A DNA stretch of 33,401 nucleotides from a virus (lineage: Duplodnaviria; Heunggongvirae; Uroviricota; Caudoviricetes), in IMG/VR virus record IMGVR_UViG_2724679239_000006; one strand, given 5' to 3'. A program made the position numbers and the translations under genes. Shown in pieces: positions 1 through 33,401 of the stretch; position 1 is the stretch's first letter, and each line of letters opens with the position of its first letter. Below the pieces are notes generated by a model, which was not told the origin of the DNA, searched no databases, and worked only from the letters and a program-made list of their open reading frames with translations.

Positions 1-1002
1 TTACCCTCTATTGTCAAAAGGGTTCAATTCAACTGCAGCCTCTAAATGACCTGGAGCAAAATGCGCATAACGCATAGTCATTTTTATATCGCTATGCCCC
101 AGTATTTTTTGCAACACAAGAATATTTCCTCCCCGCATCATAAAATGACTGGCAAACGTGTGACGTAGCACATGAGTTAATTGCCCATCAGGAAGCTCGA
201 TCTTCGCTCTCTTAATTGCAGCGTCAAAAGCCTCATAACATGGTGAAAATAACGCTCCTCGTTTTTTAGGAAGCATAGCCTGCAATTGAGGTGAAATCGG
301 TACAGTGCGGTTCTTCTTTCCTTTAGTTTTAACAAATGTGATTCGACCGGGCAGCACTTGAGATTGCTTTAATCCTTCAGCTTCACTCCACCGAGCACCA
401 GTCGCAAGCCCAATACGGACAACAACCCCCAAATCTTTATTCCGTGACTCATCACACGCAATCAGAAGGCGTTCAATCTCATCTACATACAGAAACGCCA
501 ATTCCTTTTCTTCCTCACGAAACTTGCGAATGCCAGTCAGGGGGTTTTCACCAGACCACTCCCCAAGGCGCTTCAGTTCGGCAAAAACAGCATGTAGATA
601 TGACTGCTCGCGATTAACGGTTGCTTCACTAAGTTTTTTCTTCCCCTTGGGATTCCATTCTCCTGATAACCTCCTTTCCCGATAAGTAGCAAACATATTT
701 TTGTCAAACTGAGAAGCAAATGGATCTCCCAGCCTGGAACAAATAGACTCAAGTTTGACTTTGCGCTCTGCACCAGAGGACAAGGTTTTACCGTACATCT
801 CAAACCAACGAGCAACCAACTCAGAAAGACGAGGACCAGAACCATCTTGAAACTCGTCTCCAACTCTACTATTCATTAAACGGCGCTCATAAGAGAGCGC
901 CTCACTTTTTGTCGCAAACTGTTTACGAATACGTTTTCCCGATGCCCCGTAAGGATAACATTCGCAAAGCCATTTACCTGATGGAATCTTACGAACCGAC
1001 AT
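1..1002 (-). CDS. int: Phage tyrosine integrase (P2 Int-like)
   Basis: 333-aa ORF ending at window position 1; C-terminal catalytic region with HVLRHTFASH...LGHSDIKMTMRYAHF (R-H-R-Y type motifs); sits at the prophage end next to the repressor as in P2. Confidence 0.9.
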   Translation of the reverse strand: MSVRKIPSGKWLCECYPYGASGKRIRKQFATKSEALSYERRLMNSRVGDEFQDGSGPRLSELVARWFEMYGKTLSSGAERKVKLESICSRLGDPFASQFDKNMFATYRERRLSGEWNPKGKKKLSEATVNREQSYLHAVFAELKRLGEWSGENPLTGIRKFREEEKELAFLYVDEIERLLIACDESRNKDLGVVVRIGLATGARWSEAEGLKQSQVLPGRITFVKTKGKKNRTVPISPQLQAMLPKKRGALFSPCYEAFDAAIKRAKIELPDGQLTHVLRHTFASHFMMRGGNILVLQKILGHSDIKMTMRYAHFAPGHLEAAVELNPFDNRG

Positions 1003-1007
1003 TTTAG

Positions 1008-1355
1008 TTACTTATCACATAAATCAAATGCAGCCTTAGTGACATCTCCCAGATTCTTTTTTAACCCTGGGGCGGCATCATTATCCAGCCAAAATGGATT
1101 ATTGTTATCTAACGGTAACGCACCAAATGTTTTACCTTTTATTCGAGCCAAACCTGTAAGCGCATATAACTTATTATCGTCAAAATTCATCACATAAGGA
1201 TTACCATCTAGACACTGTAACTGAACCTCATCAGTATTAAATGGCCATACCCCATTGAAACTCTCACGTTCAATATTTTTAAAAGGCATTGCGACGGCAG
1301 AAAAAGAAAACATAGATAAAAAAGTAACTAATAGTTGAACATTTTTTACTTTCAT
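1008..1355 (-). CDS. Hypothetical secreted protein (N-terminal signal peptide), lysogeny-side accessory gene
   Basis: 115-aa ORF; N-terminus MKVKNVQLLVTFLSMFSFSAVA looks like a Sec signal peptide; lies between the repressor operon and int. Confidence 0.55.
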   Translation of the reverse strand: MKVKNVQLLVTFLSMFSFSAVAMPFKNIERESFNGVWPFNTDEVQLQCLDGNPYVMNFDDNKLYALTGLARIKGKTFGALPLDNNNPFWLDNDAAPGLKKNLGDVTKAAFDLCDK

Positions 1356-3339: not shown

Positions 3340-3618
3340 ATGACCAAAGACCATGCTCAGGGTGTATTTATCCGCTTTATTGATTTTCGCGGTGAGCTGT
3401 TGTTGCGCGCATCAGCTATTGATGGAGTGGTTCCGGTAGATAAAAGCACGGCCACTTACATTTATCTGAACGGCACACGCCTGACCGTAGAGATTCCATA
3501 TCAACCCGTATGCGAAATTATTAGAGAAGCTGAAAAAGCACGTCAGGTTAATAGCGATAAACCCTATCTCGAAATTATCTGCATGGATTCAGAAGCTGAA
3601 ATTCAGAAGGCAGATTAA
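3340..3618 (+). CDS. Hypothetical early protein
   Basis: ATG at 3340 (MTKDHAQ...) chosen within track ORF 3241..3618 to avoid overlap with upstream gene; 92 aa. Confidence 0.45.
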   Translation: MTKDHAQGVFIRFIDFRGELLLRASAIDGVVPVDKSTATYIYLNGTRLTVEIPYQPVCEIIREAEKARQVNSDKPYLEIICMDSEAEIQKAD

Positions 3619-3629
3619 AGGGCGTTGCG

Positions 3630-3872
3630 ATGGATAAAGAATATAAAACTCTCGTCAATAAAGCACTTGAGCGCTTTCATTTTCGCTTAAACGCATCAGG
3701 CGCTCATGCTGAACGCGCAGCCCGAGAGTCATTGACCAGAGCTATCAAGAGTATATACGACACGGCTTTTTACGTTGACGACCCGGACGCGCTCGACGAG
3801 CTTTCCGTACTCGTCTGCGCCGCAGAAAACGGGGACCATATTGAGCCATATAAACTGGGAAATATTGCATGA
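3630..3872 (+). CDS. Hypothetical early protein
   Basis: 80-aa ORF, compact spacing in early operon. Confidence 0.45.
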   Translation: MDKEYKTLVNKALERFHFRLNASGAHAERAARESLTRAIKSIYDTAFYVDDPDALDELSVLVCAAENGDHIEPYKLGNIA

Positions 3873-4655: not shown

Positions 4656-5021
4656 ATGATTCTCGCCGAAGACTTTTTTGATTACCTGCTGAAAACCGAG
4701 CGCGATTTTGGTATTCGCGTTCTCGACCGCTATGCAATGTATCTGAAATCACTGCCGGAACAGCAGCTCCCGGACGGCCAGATTGTTATTGACGGGCGCT
4801 ACATGGTTGGTAGCTGCCAGGAGGATTACACACTTTCCCGCATCGAAAGCGGCACGCCTTCCGTACTGGGTATTTACCAGCGAACTTCATCTCTGATTGC
4901 TGATGTAATTGCTGACAGCATTCGCATAACACACCGTTATGCCAGCACAGAGAGCACCATGCAGGAAATCCAGCGGCTGGCTACCGTCTGCCACAATGCA
5001 CTGAGCGGAAAGGCGGAGTAG
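4656..5021 (+). CDS. Hypothetical early protein
   Basis: 121-aa ORF immediately upstream of replication gene A. Confidence 0.45.
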   Translation: MILAEDFFDYLLKTERDFGIRVLDRYAMYLKSLPEQQLPDGQIVIDGRYMVGSCQEDYTLSRIESGTPSVLGIYQRTSSLIADVIADSIRITHRYASTESTMQEIQRLATVCHNALSGKAE

Positions 5022-5026
5022 TCGGC

Positions 5027-7810
5027 GTGGCAACGGAGTACATCAGAGACTGGCAACAACCACGCCATGCAGTCGGTCGCGAGGGAACGGGGGAGCCTGT
5101 CCGCCCCTCCCTTCTTTCTTCCTGGCTGGATGCCTACCGGGCAGAGAACGAGCGCCGCCAGGAAATGGCTGATGCGGCGTTCTCCGCTGCACCACTGGGC
5201 AATCTGATTAATAAAAGCCTGGACGCACAGGAAAAACAGGACAAAGTCATCACACTGGCAAGAGAAGCCAGAAAGCAGGCACGCGGTGCGGTGGATGAAG
5301 CCATGGCCTCGCTGCGTCTGCTGCCGTCCTATCTGCGTGATCCGCTTATCCGCCATCTCTCTTTCCTGCGCAAAAAACAGGAATCTGGCCACCAGAAAGG
5401 CAAAAAGAACCAGCAGGCGGAACGCTATGCGAGCGGAACCCTGCGCAAAATATTCGAACGCCTGGCCCGCACCGACCGTCGCTGGCTGACTCCGGGTTAT
5501 CGCTCCCTTGCCGGACGTGAACGTCTGGACGATTTGCTGTACCTGCCACAGCTCAACAAGCACCAGATACAGACGCTGGCCGTCATGACGGCGGCAATGT
5601 TCAGCAGCACCTTCGAAAAACTCTGCGATGGCTGTGGCGCGACCGACGGCGAGCTGACCATGGATATAACGCTGAAGGCGTATCAGATGCTGGCCCGCAT
5701 GGCGTTACATCTGCACACAGTGCCGCCGCATTATGACGCACTGACAACAGACAAAGACCGGAAGAACGAACCGGACACGGAACTGCTGCCGGGTGCAATC
5801 CTCCGCCTGACCTGTGCGGACTGGTGGAAACGCAAACTGTGGCTTTTACGTTGCGAATGGAGAGAGGAACAACTCCGCGCTGCCTGTCTGGTTTCCAGAA
5901 AAACATCACCCTATCTGAGTCAGGACGCATTAAGTGAATTTCGCGCACAGCGCGAGAAAACACGCGATTTCCTGAAAAGTTTCATGCTGGAAAATGAAGA
6001 CGGGTTCACGATTGATCTCGAGACAGTGTATTACGCGGGAGTAAGTAACCCGGTCCACCGTAAGGCAGAAATGATGGCCACCATGAAGGGACTGGAACTT
6101 CTGGCCGAAGCCCGTGGCGACAGAGCGGTGTTTCTGACTGTCACCTGCCCGTCAAAATACCACGCTACAACAGAGAACGGTCATCCGAATCCCAAATGGA
6201 ACGGCGCCACCATGCGCGATTCCAGTGATTACCTGGTTAACACTTTTTTTAAGGCGGTCCGCAAAAAACTGAATCGCGACGGCCTGCGCTGGTATGGCAT
6301 CCGCACGGTGGAGCCACACCATGACGGCACCGTGCACTGGCACATGATGGTCTTTGCACATCCTGAAGAAATCGACAGCATCGTGGACATCACCCGTGAT
6401 ATTGCCATTCGCGAAGACCGCCACGAGCTGGGCAATGACATAACTCCGCGCTTTAAGGCAGAGTACGTCGACGGTTCGAAAGGTACGCCGACCAGCTACA
6501 TCGCCACCTACATCGGAAAGAACCTGGACAGCCGCGCCGTGGATGGCATTGACCCGAAAACAGGCAAGCCACGCGTTGATCACGAAACCGGAAAATCAAT
6601 GGCCGAGAGCGTGGAACGCGCCATCGGCTGGGCGCGCCTTCACCGCGTCCGCCAGTTCCAGTTCTTTGGTATCCCCTCCCGTCAGGTATGGCGTGAACTC
6701 CGCCGCCTTGCCAGTCAGATGGCCCGCAACCCGGAAGGTCCACAACGTCTGGAAAATGACGCAATGGATGCGGTACTCGCTGCCGCTGATGCCGGGTGTT
6801 TTGCCACCTACATTGAGAAACAGGGTGGCGTACTTGTTCCACGCAAGGATTACCTGATTCGCACCGCCTACGACCTCGCAGAAGAGCTGAACGATTACGG
6901 CGAGCAAAGCGTACAGATTTACGGGATCTGGTCGCCACAAATCGGGGAATCTTCCCGCGTGTGCACGCACCCGGATAACTGGAAGCTGGTAAGACGTAAA
7001 CCGGAAGCGGAAGACAGCGCCCGCGAAAATGGTTTTGACCTTCAGGGCGGCCCTGCCGCCCCTTGGACTCGTGGCAATAACTGTCCCCGTGTACAGGAAA
7101 CGGACAACAACGGGACAGAACGGCCAGCACCGTGGCCGCAGCTTCCTGACGGCGTTGATGTGGATGAATGGATGCGCTCACTGAAACGGCACGAAAGCCG
7201 GGCGCTGATGCGTTCGCTGCGTGACAAACAGGCAAAAAACAACAGTGATGAAATGCAGAACTGGACACAGAGCCGCAAACAGCCGCGGCCTTTGCCTGAT
7301 AACCACGAGTTACTCGCTAAAGAATGGCGGGAGTCTGCCGAATCTCTCGGCCTGCATATCGGTGAACAACAGATGCAGCACCTGTTACGGGGCGGCAGTC
7401 TGTACGTTGACGGCAGCATCATTGCACCGCAGGGATTTGAAATTGTACGTAAACCGGATACCCGACCGGACAGCCGAATCACACAACTCTGGCAGCGCCT
7501 GAGCCGTAATCACGGCGTAAACAGCACGGAAATCCGCCATAACCCGGTTTCCAGCTATCTGAAACAGCTCGGGGCATCAGACCCAGAAGCCGCCGCACGC
7601 CTGGCATCCACAATTCAGCAGGACCAGAACACCATGAAAACACCCGTTACCGTACTTTCTGACATGCTGCGCACCATCCGTGACGCAGAGCACGCACAGA
7701 GAATCAGTGAAACCACTGAACGCGCCCGCCGCAAAGCAGACCTGCTGCGGTGGCCTGACCAGCGAAAACAAAAAACAGACAGAAACGGGATTCACAAATC
7801 CCGTAAATGA
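5027..7810 (+). CDS. A: Rolling-circle replication initiation protein (P2 gpA-like)
   Basis: 927-aa ORF (GTG start at 5027; true start uncertain); HUH-type motif GTVHWHMMVFAH and tyrosine-rich motif SYIATYIGKN typical of P2 A/phiX A-type relaxases. Confidence 0.85.
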   Translation: MATEYIRDWQQPRHAVGREGTGEPVRPSLLSSWLDAYRAENERRQEMADAAFSAAPLGNLINKSLDAQEKQDKVITLAREARKQARGAVDEAMASLRLLPSYLRDPLIRHLSFLRKKQESGHQKGKKNQQAERYASGTLRKIFERLARTDRRWLTPGYRSLAGRERLDDLLYLPQLNKHQIQTLAVMTAAMFSSTFEKLCDGCGATDGELTMDITLKAYQMLARMALHLHTVPPHYDALTTDKDRKNEPDTELLPGAILRLTCADWWKRKLWLLRCEWREEQLRAACLVSRKTSPYLSQDALSEFRAQREKTRDFLKSFMLENEDGFTIDLETVYYAGVSNPVHRKAEMMATMKGLELLAEARGDRAVFLTVTCPSKYHATTENGHPNPKWNGATMRDSSDYLVNTFFKAVRKKLNRDGLRWYGIRTVEPHHDGTVHWHMMVFAHPEEIDSIVDITRDIAIREDRHELGNDITPRFKAEYVDGSKGTPTSYIATYIGKNLDSRAVDGIDPKTGKPRVDHETGKSMAESVERAIGWARLHRVRQFQFFGIPSRQVWRELRRLASQMARNPEGPQRLENDAMDAVLAAADAGCFATYIEKQGGVLVPRKDYLIRTAYDLAEELNDYGEQSVQIYGIWSPQIGESSRVCTHPDNWKLVRRKPEAEDSARENGFDLQGGPAAPWTRGNNCPRVQETDNNGTERPAPWPQLPDGVDVDEWMRSLKRHESRALMRSLRDKQAKNNSDEMQNWTQSRKQPRPLPDNHELLAKEWRESAESLGLHIGEQQMQHLLRGGSLYVDGSIIAPQGFEIVRKPDTRPDSRITQLWQRLSRNHGVNSTEIRHNPVSSYLKQLGASDPEAAARLASTIQQDQNTMKTPVTVLSDMLRTIRDAEHAQRISETTERARRKADLLRWPDQRKQKTDRNGIHKSRK

Positions 7811-7911: not shown

Positions 7912-8871
7912 ATGAAAATTTGCATCGACGACGGCTCCACCAACATCAAGCTGGCATGGACTGAGAACGGCGAACGCCGCAACGCCATCAGCCCGAACAG
8001 CTTCAAGTCGGAATGGTCTGCGCCGTTCGGTGGCACGCAGCCCGCGAACTACATGCTTGATGGCGTGCGCTATGGTTTTGATCCGGTCAGCGATCGCTTT
8101 GTCCAGACGACCGACACGCAATACCAGTACAGCGATGTGAATGTCATTGCCATTCATCACGCGCTGGTCAAATCAGGTATCACACCACAGGAAGTGGACG
8201 TGGTTGTCACTCTGCCACTGAGCGAGTATTTCGATACAAACGCACAGCCGGACATGGCCAACATCAACCGCAAAAAAGCGAATGTCCTGCGCCCTGTGGA
8301 GTACCAGAACGGTGAAGCATTCACTATCCGCAACGTGCGGGTTATGCCTGAATCCATTCCGGCTGGCTTTAAGGCACTGGCTGACATGAGTCCGTTTGAA
8401 TCTCTGCTGATTGTGGATTTAGGCGGAACAACGCTGGATGTGGCAAAGGTTCAGGGGCAACTGGCAGGCATCAGCCAGGTATTTTGCGATCCACATGTGG
8501 GCGTTTCCCTGATGACCGATGCCGTGTTGTCGGTGATGGCCGCCAACGGCATGCGTACCAGTCACCACGTCGCCAGTACCGTTATTGAACATCGTCACGA
8601 TGAAGCCTGGCTGCGCCGGCACATCCACAATGACGCGCATTACAACAGCCTGATGGCAGTTATTCGTGAAAAGGAGGAGACACTAAAACAACGCGTGATC
8701 CGCGCACTCGCGGGCTTTTCGGGTTACGGGCGGGTGCTGGTTGTCGGTGGAGGAGCGGAGATTGTGGCACCCGCAGTCCATGAAGTCTATGGAGTCAATG
8801 CGAATTTCATCACAGACGGGGTGCCACAGTTTGCTCTGGTTAACGGTCTGTACGCTATGGATAAGGAGTAA
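7912..8871 (+). CDS. parM: Actin-like segregation ATPase ParM/StbA
   Basis: 319 aa; N-terminus MKICIDDGSTNIKLAW and colinear conserved blocks (YSDVNVIAIHHAL, VMPESIPAG, LIVDLGGTTLD, VVGGGAE, LVNGLY) match plasmid R1 ParM as remembered. Confidence 0.85.
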   Translation: MKICIDDGSTNIKLAWTENGERRNAISPNSFKSEWSAPFGGTQPANYMLDGVRYGFDPVSDRFVQTTDTQYQYSDVNVIAIHHALVKSGITPQEVDVVVTLPLSEYFDTNAQPDMANINRKKANVLRPVEYQNGEAFTIRNVRVMPESIPAGFKALADMSPFESLLIVDLGGTTLDVAKVQGQLAGISQVFCDPHVGVSLMTDAVLSVMAANGMRTSHHVASTVIEHRHDEAWLRRHIHNDAHYNSLMAVIREKEETLKQRVIRALAGFSGYGRVLVVGGGAEIVAPAVHEVYGVNANFITDGVPQFALVNGLYAMDKE

Positions 8872-8877
8872 CCCTCC

Positions 8878-9189
8878 ATGGCGACATTAACCAGAAGAAT
8901 AAGTTTCTATCTGAAGCCAGCCGCCGTCAAGAACGAAGGCAAAGCATGCGACTGGCTGGACAGCCTTACACCAGAAGCCCGCAAAAGCGGCCAACGCGTG
9001 GCTTTTCTGGCCGGGCTGGCACTTCTGAAAATGAATCCGGCAGAGGCTTACCGACTGTCTGCATGGGCTGATGATGAGGCGTTATCAGTGACACAAACCA
9101 GGGCAGAACGCCACATGTTACAGCCAGCGCCCACCGCACAGATAACCAGTCAGATAGCCGGAAATATCCGGGCGTTATTTCCCGAATAA
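8878..9189 (+). CDS. parR: ParR-like centromere-binding adaptor (RHH)
   Basis: 103 aa directly downstream of parM; RRISFYLKPAAV...CDWLDSLTPEARKSGQRVAFLAGLAL parallels the R1 ParR N-terminal region. Confidence 0.7.
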   Translation: MATLTRRISFYLKPAAVKNEGKACDWLDSLTPEARKSGQRVAFLAGLALLKMNPAEAYRLSAWADDEALSVTQTRAERHMLQPAPTAQITSQIAGNIRALFPE

Positions 9190-31500: not shown

Positions 31501-31657
31501 AGTTCCAGCCCCTTGTATCCGTTAAATGATTCGGCAACAATCATCACCCACCACGCGCGTAATCTCATCCCTGCGCCGTTCTTGCCGCCCGGCGACAACA
31601 AAAAGCAGTAACCCCGCCCGCACACACATGCGACCATGCTGCACAGGGAGGGAGCCG
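31501..31657. promoter_or_regulatory. Divergent intergenic region between FI (leftward) and D (rightward), with 19-bp palindrome ATGATT-N7-AATCAT at 31526..31544
   Basis: Only non-coding interval available to drive both the tail operon and D in this arrangement; palindrome seen directly. Confidence 0.3.
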
Positions 31658-32767
31658 ATGATTGACACCACCATGCAACTGTTCAACCAGAGTACTGACC
31701 CCGTGAAGATGCCTGATTTTGATATTCTCGCGGAGGGGAAAACGCTGTCCGGTGTGACAGAACGCCTGATGAGCCTGTCACTGACCGACAACCGGGGATT
31801 TGAAGCAGACCAGCTAACCATCACGCTGGATGATGCTGATGGTCAGTTGCAGTTGCCGCCACGGGGCGCTCGCCTGACGGTTCTCATTGGCTGGAAAGGC
31901 GAACCGCTGACAGAAAAAGGCACTTACATTGTTGATGAAATTGCTCATGAAGGACCGCCCGACAGACTGACCATTTCAGCCAGAAGCGCAGATTTTCGGG
32001 ATGAATTTAACGTCAAGCGCGAAGTATCCTGGCATGATGTGACCGTTGAACGCGTGGTGTCTGCAATTGCTCACCGATACGGCCTGAAACCGCAAATCAG
32101 CGAAATGCTGATGGATATTGAAATCGACCACGCTGACCAGACCGAAGAAAGCGACATGTCCTTCCTTACACGCATGGCGGAAATGCTGGGCGCAATCACC
32201 ACGGTAAAAAGCGGTAATCTGTTATTCATCATGCCAGGTGGTGGCGTGAACGCGCAGGGAAAACCATTACCATCGTTTGCCATCACACGCAGCAGCGGCG
32301 ATCGCCATCAGTTTCGCATTGCTGACCGCGAGGCGTATACGGGGGTACGCGCTTACTGGCTTGATCTTAATTACGGGAAAAAGAAAAAAGTCAGCGTGAA
32401 ACGCCGCAAACCGCCAAAACCCAAAAAGGAGAAAAGCAGCAGCCGTGAAGGTGACTATATGGAAGGTGCGGAAGGCAACGTGTTTGTGTTACGCAAGACT
32501 TATCAGAACGAGCAGGCAGCAAGACGCGCAGCGGCGGCAAAGTGGCAGCAGCTACAACGCGGAGCCGCATCATTCTCCATCACGCTGGCGCGTGGACGCG
32601 CAGAACTCTACCCCGAAATGCATGGCACGGTAACAGGATTTAAAAGCGAGATTGATAATCAGGACTGGATTATTGCAAAAGCCGAGCACTCCATTGATAA
32701 CAGCGGCTTTACCACGCAGCTTGAGCTTGAGGCAAAAATCCCGGAATGGATAGCAGAAACAGAGTGA
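31658..32767 (+). CDS. D: Tail protein D (gpD)
   Basis: ATG at 31658 with RBS GGGAGGGAG; 369 aa; position before ogr. Confidence 0.85.
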   Translation: MIDTTMQLFNQSTDPVKMPDFDILAEGKTLSGVTERLMSLSLTDNRGFEADQLTITLDDADGQLQLPPRGARLTVLIGWKGEPLTEKGTYIVDEIAHEGPPDRLTISARSADFRDEFNVKREVSWHDVTVERVVSAIAHRYGLKPQISEMLMDIEIDHADQTEESDMSFLTRMAEMLGAITTVKSGNLLFIMPGGGVNAQGKPLPSFAITRSSGDRHQFRIADREAYTGVRAYWLDLNYGKKKKVSVKRRKPPKPKKEKSSSREGDYMEGAEGNVFVLRKTYQNEQAARRAAAAKWQQLQRGAASFSITLARGRAELYPEMHGTVTGFKSEIDNQDWIIAKAEHSIDNSGFTTQLELEAKIPEWIAETE

Positions 32768-32809
32768 GCAACTTAGAATAGCGGCAGCACCACGTTAAGG
32801 GAGGTCGCT

Positions 32810-33070
32810 ATGTTCCGTTGTCCGCTTTGTGGCGCATCTGCCCGAATCCGCACCAGTCGTTCGGAAAATGATTCAGATACCGTACGGAAAAAATATTACC
32901 AGTGTAACAACCTGGAATGCGGCGTATGCTTCTCAACACTGGAGGCTTTCCATAAATTCACATCGAAACACGCCCCCGGCGTTCACTCTTCAGAGGGCAT
33001 CCCGTGGAATGAGCTACCAGCTTCGCACAGGGGAAACAACCAGATGAGTTTGCCATTACCTCAGAATTAA
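32810..33070 (+). CDS. ogr: Ogr/Delta-family zinc-finger late transcription activator
   Basis: 86 aa; MFRCPLCG...YYQCNNLEC C4 zinc finger as in P2 Ogr; RBS GGGAGG. Confidence 0.85.
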   Translation: MFRCPLCGASARIRTSRSENDSDTVRKKYYQCNNLECGVCFSTLEAFHKFTSKHAPGVHSSEGIPWNELPASHRGNNQMSLPLPQN

Positions 33071-33130
33071 CAGGCTGAATTGCCGGAGTAACAAAAAAGC
33101 GATAGATTACGCGCGGGTGCCTTTCGGCTG

Positions 33131-33343
33131 ATGGCTGGAGGGAATACCCGAAGGCCGGATGTGGAAAGGCCCCGGAAAACATCTCTGTTTAACCGAGGCC
33201 CTGACCATCTAACCTTAGCAAGTGATAGGTTAGCGCCTCCCCAAAAAAGGAGCAAGCGCTATGTCGCAAAAATCGCTTATGGCCATCACGTTCTGCGTGA
33301 CGGTAATCCTCATCATCTGGATGCTGCACGGTTCGCTGTGTGA
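33131..33343 (+). CDS. Mok-like overlapping reading frame of the hok locus
   Basis: 70-aa ORF starting upstream of and overlapping the hok-like gene in another frame, as expected for mok. Confidence 0.3.
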   Translation: MAGGNTRRPDVERPRKTSLFNRGPDHLTLASDRLAPPQKRSKRYVAKIAYGHHVLRDGNPHHLDAARFAV

Positions 33344-33401
33344 AATACGGATGAGCTTCTGGGGAGCGGAGTTTGCGGCGTTCTTACAGTGTAAGCAGTA
33401 A
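33261..33401 (+). CDS. Hok/Gef-family type I toxin (46 aa)
   Basis: RBS AAGGAG 8 nt upstream; translation MSQKSLMAITFCVTVILIIWMLHGSLCEIRMSFWGAEFAAFLQCKQ has an N-terminal TM helix and the conserved SLCE(I/L)R...E.AAF..C core of Hok proteins; stop codon is the last triplet of the window. Confidence 0.6.
   Translation: MSQKSLMAITFCVTVILIIWMLHGSLCEIRMSFWGAEFAAFLQCKQ

Follow-up and report, generated by a model that had tools for sequence, protein, structure and literature searches.

The tac/ucb/SD switch logic of hok mRNA has been described for the hok/mok/sok locus of plasmid R1, in which the sequence GAGG is the Shine-Dalgarno (SD) sequence of mok (PMC9841398). Among prophage-borne loci, hokW-sokW of Sp5 was reported to bring growth arrest forward and to double phage release after induction (PMC8621323). 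On a broader scale, a preprint (10.1101/2025.08.07.668861) gives M1, C16, T18, L30, C31, E32, and E41 as positions kept by more than 80% of 1264 Hok peptides; it also describes hok as enriched in prophages, states in a passing remark that type I toxin-antitoxin systems help to maintain prophages, and explicitly places mok outside the analysis.

Here, we have examined the end of a stretch of 33,401 nucleotides from a virus of the Caudoviricetes (IMG/VR record IMGVR_UViG_2724679239_000006), the whole of which is referred to as the window. Judged from its sequence, the terminal region downstream of ogr is very probably a hok/sok-type type I toxin-antitoxin cassette, carried as cargo by a P88-like prophage. 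The finding is real and already known: RefSeq and phage databases annotate the same protein, and hok has been described before as enriched in prophages. Its value is mostly one of annotation, hok after ogr being a standard cargo gene of P88-like prophages of the P2 family. Two points are of biological note, namely a subfamily seemingly without the mok leader, which is essential in the R1 paradigm, and the role of a hok/sok cassette in P2-like phages.

The Hok peptide and its prophage context

The last ORF of the window encodes a peptide of 46 aa, MSQKSLMAITFCVTVILIIWMLHGSLCEIRMSFWGAEFAAFLQCKQ, with a hydrophobic segment at about residues 6–22 and with both the SLCEIR and the EFAAFLQC motif. 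An SD sequence, AAGGAG (33247–33252), precedes the ATG by 8 nt, and the window closes with the stop codon. The ORF, its ribosome-binding site, the transmembrane helix, the two motifs, and the gene end exactly at the window edge had all been listed in the preliminary description, and all were found as described there.

The profile searches agreed with the Hok/Gef identity proposed in the same description. The Pfam model HOK_GEF (PF01848) was matched with 30.3 bits (gathering threshold, 22; E 3.1e-07; profile positions 5–42 of 42), and PHROG 251 (“MokW-like host killing”, category moron) with an E value of 3.1e-23 over the full peptide length, while the HokA and Hok models of NCBIfam matched with scores under their strict cutoffs. 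In an alignment with HokC of K-12, the 46-aa Hok of an Stx2 phage, and Hok of R1, the residues M1, C12, T14, L26-C27-E28, E37, A39, and F41 are invariant. With an N-terminus shorter by four residues, M1, C12, T14, L26, C27, E28, and E37 of the window correspond to the positions kept by more than 80% of the peptides in the preprint, and their spacings are identical to those of its sequence logo (10.1101/2025.08.07.668861). Since the invariant residues match these conserved positions, the Hok core is in register. RefSeq contains the identical protein as WP_000078911.1 (“Hok/Gef family protein”, E. coli 510016), and the ORF is intact, with 46–47 aa, in 123 of 124 related loci. At the level of sequence, the Hok assignment is far beyond chance, and the reading of the 46-aa ORF as a putative Hok/Gef-family toxin of a type I toxin-antitoxin locus is supported.

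Starting with a tyrosine integrase gene (ORF 1..1002, minus strand), the window displays the gene order of the P2 family, i.e., a repressor region, replication gene A, portal/terminase, capsid, lysis, and tail genes, gene D (31526..32767), and ogr. The hok cassette begins about 10 nt past the ogr stop codon and fills the last ~320 bases. The counterpart of parMR, which had been noticed at 7.9..9.2 kb, is real, a ParM/ParR pair being located at 7912..9189. This pair is common to all P88-like phages and already annotated there; a role of hok in prophage retention, as discussed below, is coherent with it.

Whether hok lies inside the prophage or in flanking host DNA had been left undecided, and here the relatives were informative. 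The 602-nt ogr-hok segment is present at a coverage of at least 80% in 1158 of 5426 complete E. coli genomes (about a fifth), in which it is annotated as “ogr/Delta-like zinc finger” and “Hok/Gef family protein”. It also occurs, with 93–96% identity, in the phages P88, P88_4B11 (Xuanwuvirus), Chuche, and PhiR44_2 and in Citrobacter phage Shae_phiSM. The cassette alone, 84% identical, is found in many Stx2a-converting phages, and the 46-aa Hok subfamily is rare on plasmids (37 records). Phage Chuche, a virion isolate from mud, reveals the order D-ogr-hok-com-methyltransferase-int-C-cox, and a circular record of 34,461 bp, labelled as a “plasmid”, shows the same ogr-hok-com-methylase arrangement. 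For the placement of attP, the phage records 500465-2 and P88_4B11 were left out, showing host flank or an unclear permutation.

The element of E. coli H3, which shares 99.9% identity with the first 2.5 kb of the window (the integrase region), sits between yecA and the tRNA-Leu gene leuZ. It is flanked by a direct repeat of 137 nt (attL 3592–3728 and attR 40728–40864 of sequence L127), and its hok is situated on the inner side of attR, at a distance of 0.93 kb. When three sequences were aligned, the crossover fell at the anticodon loop of leuZ, and the DNA next to the attR core in the direction of hok belonged to the phage. The empty yecA-leuZ site of K-12, the one unoccupied site examined, is about 195 nt long and has no hok; the possibility raised in the preliminary description, that the locus is a chromosomal hok of strains lacking the prophage, therefore fails at this site.

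The cassette is thus found between att sites and in packaged or circular phage genomes, as P88-like cargo would be, and the sequence comparisons place hok inside the phage genome, not in host DNA. It is highly likely to be accessory cargo of a P88-like prophage (P2 family, Peduoviridae) at leuZ, located between ogr and attP/attR. That it is instead a host gene merely flanking the prophage outside attR, as might be suspected from a window which stops at hok and lacks attR and from the many chromosomal hok loci of E. coli, is hardly credible given the linkage of ogr and hok in 1158 genomes, the ogr-hok-com/methylase-int order of Chuche and the circular 34.5-kb record, the position of the H3 gene inside the attR repeat, and the K-12 site of ~195 nt without hok, and for the relatives this reading can be considered already refuted by the sequences.

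Both edges of the window are gene ends. Among the 126 IMG/VR loci carrying this hok, which were collected by an exact 20-mer scan of viral contigs, 41 likewise end exactly at the hok stop codon, and the gene end at the edge is therefore an artefact of provirus boundary calling. In relatives, fbi ends 64–68 nt past the hok stop codon, which puts the fbi element and the terminator (3' UTR) presumably beyond the edge and leaves only tac within the window. As boundary callers often cut at the hok stop codon, whereby fbi and the terminator are lost, hok mRNA structures derived from their calls will be truncated.

Promoters, leader, and predicted antisense RNA

Table 1. Features of the ogr-hok region, given in window coordinates
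Feature	Position	Strand	Description
ogr	32810..33070	+	Late-gene activator; Pfam Ogr_Delta 53.4 bits; ogr/Delta-like zinc finger in RefSeq relatives
Predicted hok promoter	33080..33108	+	-35 TTGCCG (33080-85), 17-nt spacer, -10 TAGATT (33103-08)
hok mRNA 5' leader	33115..33260	+	First G of GGGUGCC as predicted +1; alignable with the hokC leader of K-12
tac-like 5' element	33115..33129	+	GGGUGCCUUUCGGCU; nearly invariant in homologues
“Mok-like” frame	33131..33343	+	70 aa; present in the window, not conserved
Predicted Sok RNA	33159..33220	-	~60 nt; 10-nt 5' tail, hairpin GGCCUCGG..CCGGGGCC (33200-33168), weak U-tail
ucb-like box	33164..33173	+	GAAAGGCCCC; alternative partner of tac; also pairs with the GAGG box
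CGAGGC box	33194..33199	+	Invariant; homologous to the mok SD (GAGG) of R1/hokC; no start codon after it here
Hypervariable block	33204..33219	+	Predicted sokT, target of the single-stranded 5' tail of Sok
Predicted sok promoter	33227..33255	-	-35 TTGCTC (33255-33250), 17-nt spacer, -10 TAACCT (33232-33227)
Anti-SD hairpin	33234..33259	+	GCGCCUCC ... GGAG CAA GCGC; predicted to sequester the hok SD; from the fold of a 98.7% identical relative; invariant columns
hok CDS	33261..33401	+	Predicted 46-aa membrane toxin, Hok/Gef family

The features of the region are listed in Table 1. A consensus scan of 32760–33401 for promoters and terminators, with a threshold of 9 of 12 positions, found nothing. 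The hok promoter was missed because it matches the consensus at 8 of 12 positions; the sok promoter, likewise a match of the 8-of-12 type, falls under the threshold as well, and both were identified through conservation and homology to K-12. The geometry of the hok promoter (TTGNNN, 17 nt, TAGATT/TAAATT/TAGAAT, 6 nt, GGGTGCC) is kept in unrelated upstream contexts, and the TAGATT of the window aligns with the TATAAT box 5' of K-12 hokC. Copies of the P2 type and of the Stx type are homologous from the TAGATT box as far as GGCACCC in the 3' UTR, which delimits the cassette as an autonomous module.

The Rfam model RF01794 matched 33115–33249 of the plus strand over its full length (model positions 1–157) with 40.9 bits and an E value of 1e-07, the gathering score of 59 not being reached; a relative which is 98.7% identical over ogr-hok scored 45 bits, also below 59. 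As this model describes the sense strand of the hok leader, the match shows homology of the locus and indicates nothing about the Sok strand. Further Rfam matches (CRISPR-DR26, sR1, Thr_leader, etc.) were discarded, being at chance level or reflecting the terminator.

For the same relative, the full-length mRNA was predicted to fold with -163.4 kcal/mol (z -6.6 vs. shuffles) and with 5'-3' closure, its first 15 nt pairing with GGCCGAAGUGGCACCC near the 3' end. Per-sequence duplex folding of the relatives, covering about 24 combinations of variants, gave tac-fbi duplexes of 14–18 bp with -21 to -29 kcal/mol; the 3' partner varies opposite an invariant 5' end, and the duplex is kept in all scorable 3' variants but one. 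RNAalifold on the alignment of 63 sequences missed the tac-fbi pairing, owing to the poor alignment of the 3' UTR. For these 63 unique homologues, it predicted a pairing of positions 1–14 with 47–59, i.e., of 33115–33128 with 33161–33173, and in a single-sequence fold GGCCCCGG pairs with CCGAGGCC, the latter being invariant. An alternative tac/ucb pairing, by which the SD box would be released, is predicted by these models, and the hok SD itself is modelled as buried in the conserved hairpin GCGCCUCC...GGAGCAAGCGC. Of the fbi and tac elements envisaged in the preliminary description, tac is present and its pairing with fbi is seen in relatives, fbi lying past the window edge.

A search of the minus strand for sok, another possibility raised earlier, yielded a candidate promoter and a hairpin at a position homologous to SokC. 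The exact TTGCTC-17-TAACCT arrangement is shared by 41 of 50 scorable unique homologues, and the divergent copies of Stx phages display TTGCCT or TTGACT, a spacer of 17–18 nt with a different sequence, and TAACCT. When the annotated SokC of K-12 (59 nt) is mapped via the alignment, it spans 33217 (5' end) to 33159 (3' end). Folding is more stable for the antisense than for the sense strand in each of 77 unique homologues (means of -26.4 vs. -19.8 kcal/mol), which fits a selection of G·U pairs on the antisense transcript in the modelled structures. Taken together, a Sok antisense RNA is predicted to be made from the conserved minus-strand promoter, running from about 33220 to 33159.

The hypervariable block, its putative target, occurs in at least ten variants between invariant flanks, and such a pattern would be expected of an antisense specificity determinant, not of a coding region. 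The pairing of this block with the 3' UTR differed weakly between cognate and non-cognate combinations (-16.2 vs. -14.0 kcal/mol), so a cognate pairing is suggestive only.

The mok-like frame

The preliminary description had also seen a mok arrangement in a longer frame starting upstream of hok and overlapping it. This frame does exist; it is offset from hok such that one codon starts 1 nt ahead of the hok ATG, and the frame of R1 mok relates to that of hok in the same way. Its start codon is nearly invariant, and with 70 aa it has the size of R1 Mok (PMC9841398), as would suit a classical three-gene hok/mok/sok locus. However, of 78 unique close homologues, nearly all of which have an intact hok, only 26 keep an open frame from ATG 33131; seven others have a different ATG, and in most of the rest the frame is interrupted by stops and offers no start of the ATG, GTG, or TTG type. 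Both remaining frames close 15–51 nt upstream of the hok ATG, and where a start codon follows, it is located beyond the hok SD, with a single sequence as the exception. Allowing for ATG, GTG, and TTG starts in three frames, none of the candidates for a mok equivalent was conserved among the 78 unique homologues, most of which lack, in every frame, an ORF with a canonical start that extends to the hok SD.

The ATG at 33131 itself is located 16 nt from the predicted 5' end of the mRNA and is not preceded by an SD; it forms part of the tac stem, an RNA structure which explains its conservation. The 70-aa translation matched no family in Pfam, PHROG, or NCBIfam, and the mokC ATG has a TAA as its counterpart in the window. 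The longer frame is probably fortuitous, and the 46-aa Hok subfamily appears, from the homologues compared, to have no conserved mok leader ORF; the mok reading of the earlier description is accordingly left without support, and a hok/mok/sok locus of the classical kind is distinctly improbable here. A mini-ORF (GTG-NNN-GGT-TAG, 33222–33233), present in copies of the P2 type, absent from those of the Stx type, and without an SD, is not proposed to be functional. In PHROG and GenBank, the label “MokW-like” is attached to the Hok peptide itself, and its use in phage databases is misleading in that it refers to Hok.

As a more far-reaching model, which we consider speculative and rather unlikely as a whole, the 46-aa prophage Hok could represent a mok-independent variant, in which Sok and the tac/fbi/ucb switch would gate the hok SD directly via the anti-SD hairpin and the specificity of the antitoxin among co-resident copies would be determined by the hypervariable block. 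Joined by parMR, such a cassette would form a plasmid-style stability kit, combining partition of the excised circle with killing of phage-losing cells. Sok would act about 30 nt upstream of the hok SD, and for a block of translation at this distance, with no mok involved, the mok-less model offers no explanation.

Possible roles and comparison with known systems

On the plus strand, the cassette would express, from its autonomous promoter, a highly structured mRNA starting at 33115 and encoding the 46-aa Hok. In this mRNA, the hok SD would be held in the conserved anti-SD hairpin, the 5' end (tac) would pair with fbi at the 3' end or, alternatively, with the internal ucb box, and the free 5' tail of the predicted Sok would pair with the hypervariable block of the leader. 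By homology to R1 hok/sok, hokC/sokC, and hokW/sokW, the full-length mRNA may be expected to be stable and inert, until slow trimming at its 3' end opens the structure. As in these homologous systems, the short-lived Sok would then bind the leader of the opened mRNA and lead to its decay, and once the supply of Sok stops, Hok would be made and the inner membrane depolarised or damaged.

The most likely role of such a cassette may be a selfish retention of the prophage through killing of cells that lose it, a reading to which we would give slightly less than an even chance. It is coherent with the remark of the preprint on type I systems and prophage maintenance (10.1101/2025.08.07.668861). Next best is an aid to lysis on induction, which we regard as possible, if on balance unlikely. 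It is the only role tested for a prophage hok/sok: for Sp5, mitomycin C makes Sok disappear, the synthesis of Hok precedes that of the endolysin, and the release of phage drops to half when the locus is absent (PMC8621323). Moreover, a 46-aa Hok which is 76% identical to that of the window is found in Stx2 phages. On the other hand, HokW (51 aa) belongs to a different Hok subfamily and to a lambdoid SOS-inducible phage, and the effect in Sp5 was only twofold.

A defence by abortive infection is clearly less probable than either of these roles. Here, a lytic superinfection would stop host transcription, Sok would decay, and Hok would kill the cell. In relatives, variable cargo adjoins the cassette, such as the TIR and SIR2 genes between D and ogr of E. 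coli H3, and R1 hok/sok was originally reported to partially exclude T4, as cited in PMC13047441, but this exclusion was not reproduced (PMC13047441). According to a heading in the preprint, hok is also not enriched near defence systems (10.1101/2025.08.07.668861).

Finally, the cassette might be an inactive relic. Both promoters are sub-consensus, and in relatives a degenerate second hok remnant adjoins attR. Some hok loci are also said to be disrupted in laboratory strains. We consider this reading very improbable, however, as the ORF is intact with 46–47 aa in 123 of 124 loci, and as conservation extends to the promoters, tac/fbi, and both the anti-SD and the Sok hairpin, in contrast to a diversifying target block. 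Retention of the prophage remains the reading that we prefer, at the tentative level given above.

Comparing the window with described systems, the closest are P88-like phages such as P88, Xuanwuvirus P88_4B11, and Chuche, which carry the same hok directly after ogr, with 93–98% identity of the ogr-hok DNA, and share the parMR pair as well. Their records annotate the peptide only (“MokW-like”), but not Sok, the promoters, or the mRNA elements; otherwise, there is no substantive difference. The leader alignment with hokC(gef)/mokC/sokC of K-12 extends from the -10 box up to the hok ATG and takes in GGGTG, GAAAGCCCCG, and CCGAGGCC, and the core residues of Hok are shared, whereas the proteins are only 24% identical. 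In K-12, mokC is an in-frame N-terminal extension from an ATG, where the window has TAA, and the locus is chromosomal, while the cassette of the window is phage-borne.

Like the window, the hok/mok/sok locus of R1 combines a small transmembrane toxin, which has the SLCEIR core, with an antisense RNA that is encoded in cis and directed at the leader (a predicted RNA in the window), and its mRNA logic, with the tac/fbi fold-back, the tac/ucb alternative, and the GAGG box (PMC9841398), matches that of the cassette. The R1 protein has 52 aa compared to 46 aa, with an identity of ~33%, and its locus is plasmid-borne and includes mok, whereas the window cassette is located on an integrated prophage of the P2 family and has no conserved mok. 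The hokW-sokW locus of the Stx2 prophage Sp5 is prophage-borne like that of the window (PMC8621323), but its HokW, a hokC-like paralogue, has 51 aa in contrast to the 46 aa of the window Hok. Distinct from HokW, the 46-aa copy of Stx2a phages shows 84% DNA identity to the window from the -10 box to fbi and 76% identity at the protein level.

Provirus boundaries and the attachment site

The window opens at the stop codon of the integrase gene (position 1) and closes at that of hok (33401), and a boundary placed exactly at the hok stop was found in 41 of the 126 IMG/VR loci carrying the hok of the window. Provirus boundary calls therefore often remove the hok 3' UTR, with its fbi element and terminator, together with the att sites. 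The anticodon loop of leuZ, the gene for tRNA-Leu (UAA), serves as the attachment site, and the duplication of 120-137 nt found there includes 3'ETS-leuZ, which the K-12 annotation lists as a small RNA; judged from the coordinates, each lysogen would possess two copies of this small RNA sequence. In relatives, the attR core is directly adjoined by a second, degenerate and diverged hok-like remnant, in which the leader is preserved as far as the CCGAGG box and is joined, through an internal deletion, to the SLCEIR...C-terminal part.

Features of the window and of related loci
Feature	Coordinates	Location
leuZ attachment site and duplication	E. coli H3 locus (L127) 3592-3728 and 40728-40864; comparison locus L129 2249-2402	
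Second, degenerate hok-like remnant	comparison locus L002 5310-5470; L127 about 40560-40680	outside the window; in relatives, immediately internal to attR
ParM (PF06406 + PF21523) and ParR/StbB-like (PF10784) pair	window 7912-9189	after replication gene A
Variable cargo	L127 36878-38793; phage Chuche (L003) 6829-7771; NZ_CP148288.1 (L128) 4856-5822	flanking ogr-hok in relatives
DUF2511 protein gene	window 1008-1355	adjoining the integrase, attL side of the prophage
Hypervariable block, 12-15 nt	window 33204-33219	within the hok leader, facing the 5' tail predicted for Sok

The hok leader

The match to Rfam RF01794 ("sok antitoxin") at 33115-33249 of the window lies on the sense strand, not on the antisense strand; the family covers the leader of the hok mRNA from +1 to the hok AUG, and strand calls based on it would mislead. 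Within the leader, the hypervariable block is bounded by invariant flanks and shows at least ten variants among close homologues. Such variation, facing the predicted 5' tail of Sok, suggests that antitoxin specificity is diversifying.

Cargo genes, a circular form and the partition system

TIR-domain and SIR2-family genes are located between D and ogr in E. coli H3, and com and a DNA methyltransferase gene between hok and int in Chuche and pZ1323PEC0009-2; the D-ogr interval of the window contains neither set. The DUF2511 protein, annotated in one relative as YebY family, is encoded by another small cargo gene of the prophage.

Deposited as an E. coli plasmid, the circular record NZ_CP148288.1 (34,461 bp) is, despite this label, a P88-like phage genome including ogr-hok, so that the culture behind it yielded an assembly of an extrachromosomal circular phage form. 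Since the ParM/ParR pair is common to P88, P88_4B11, Chuche, PhiR44_2, Shae_phiSM and others, with 90-93% nucleotide identity, a plasmid-type partition system is a standard feature of P88-like phages of the P2 family.
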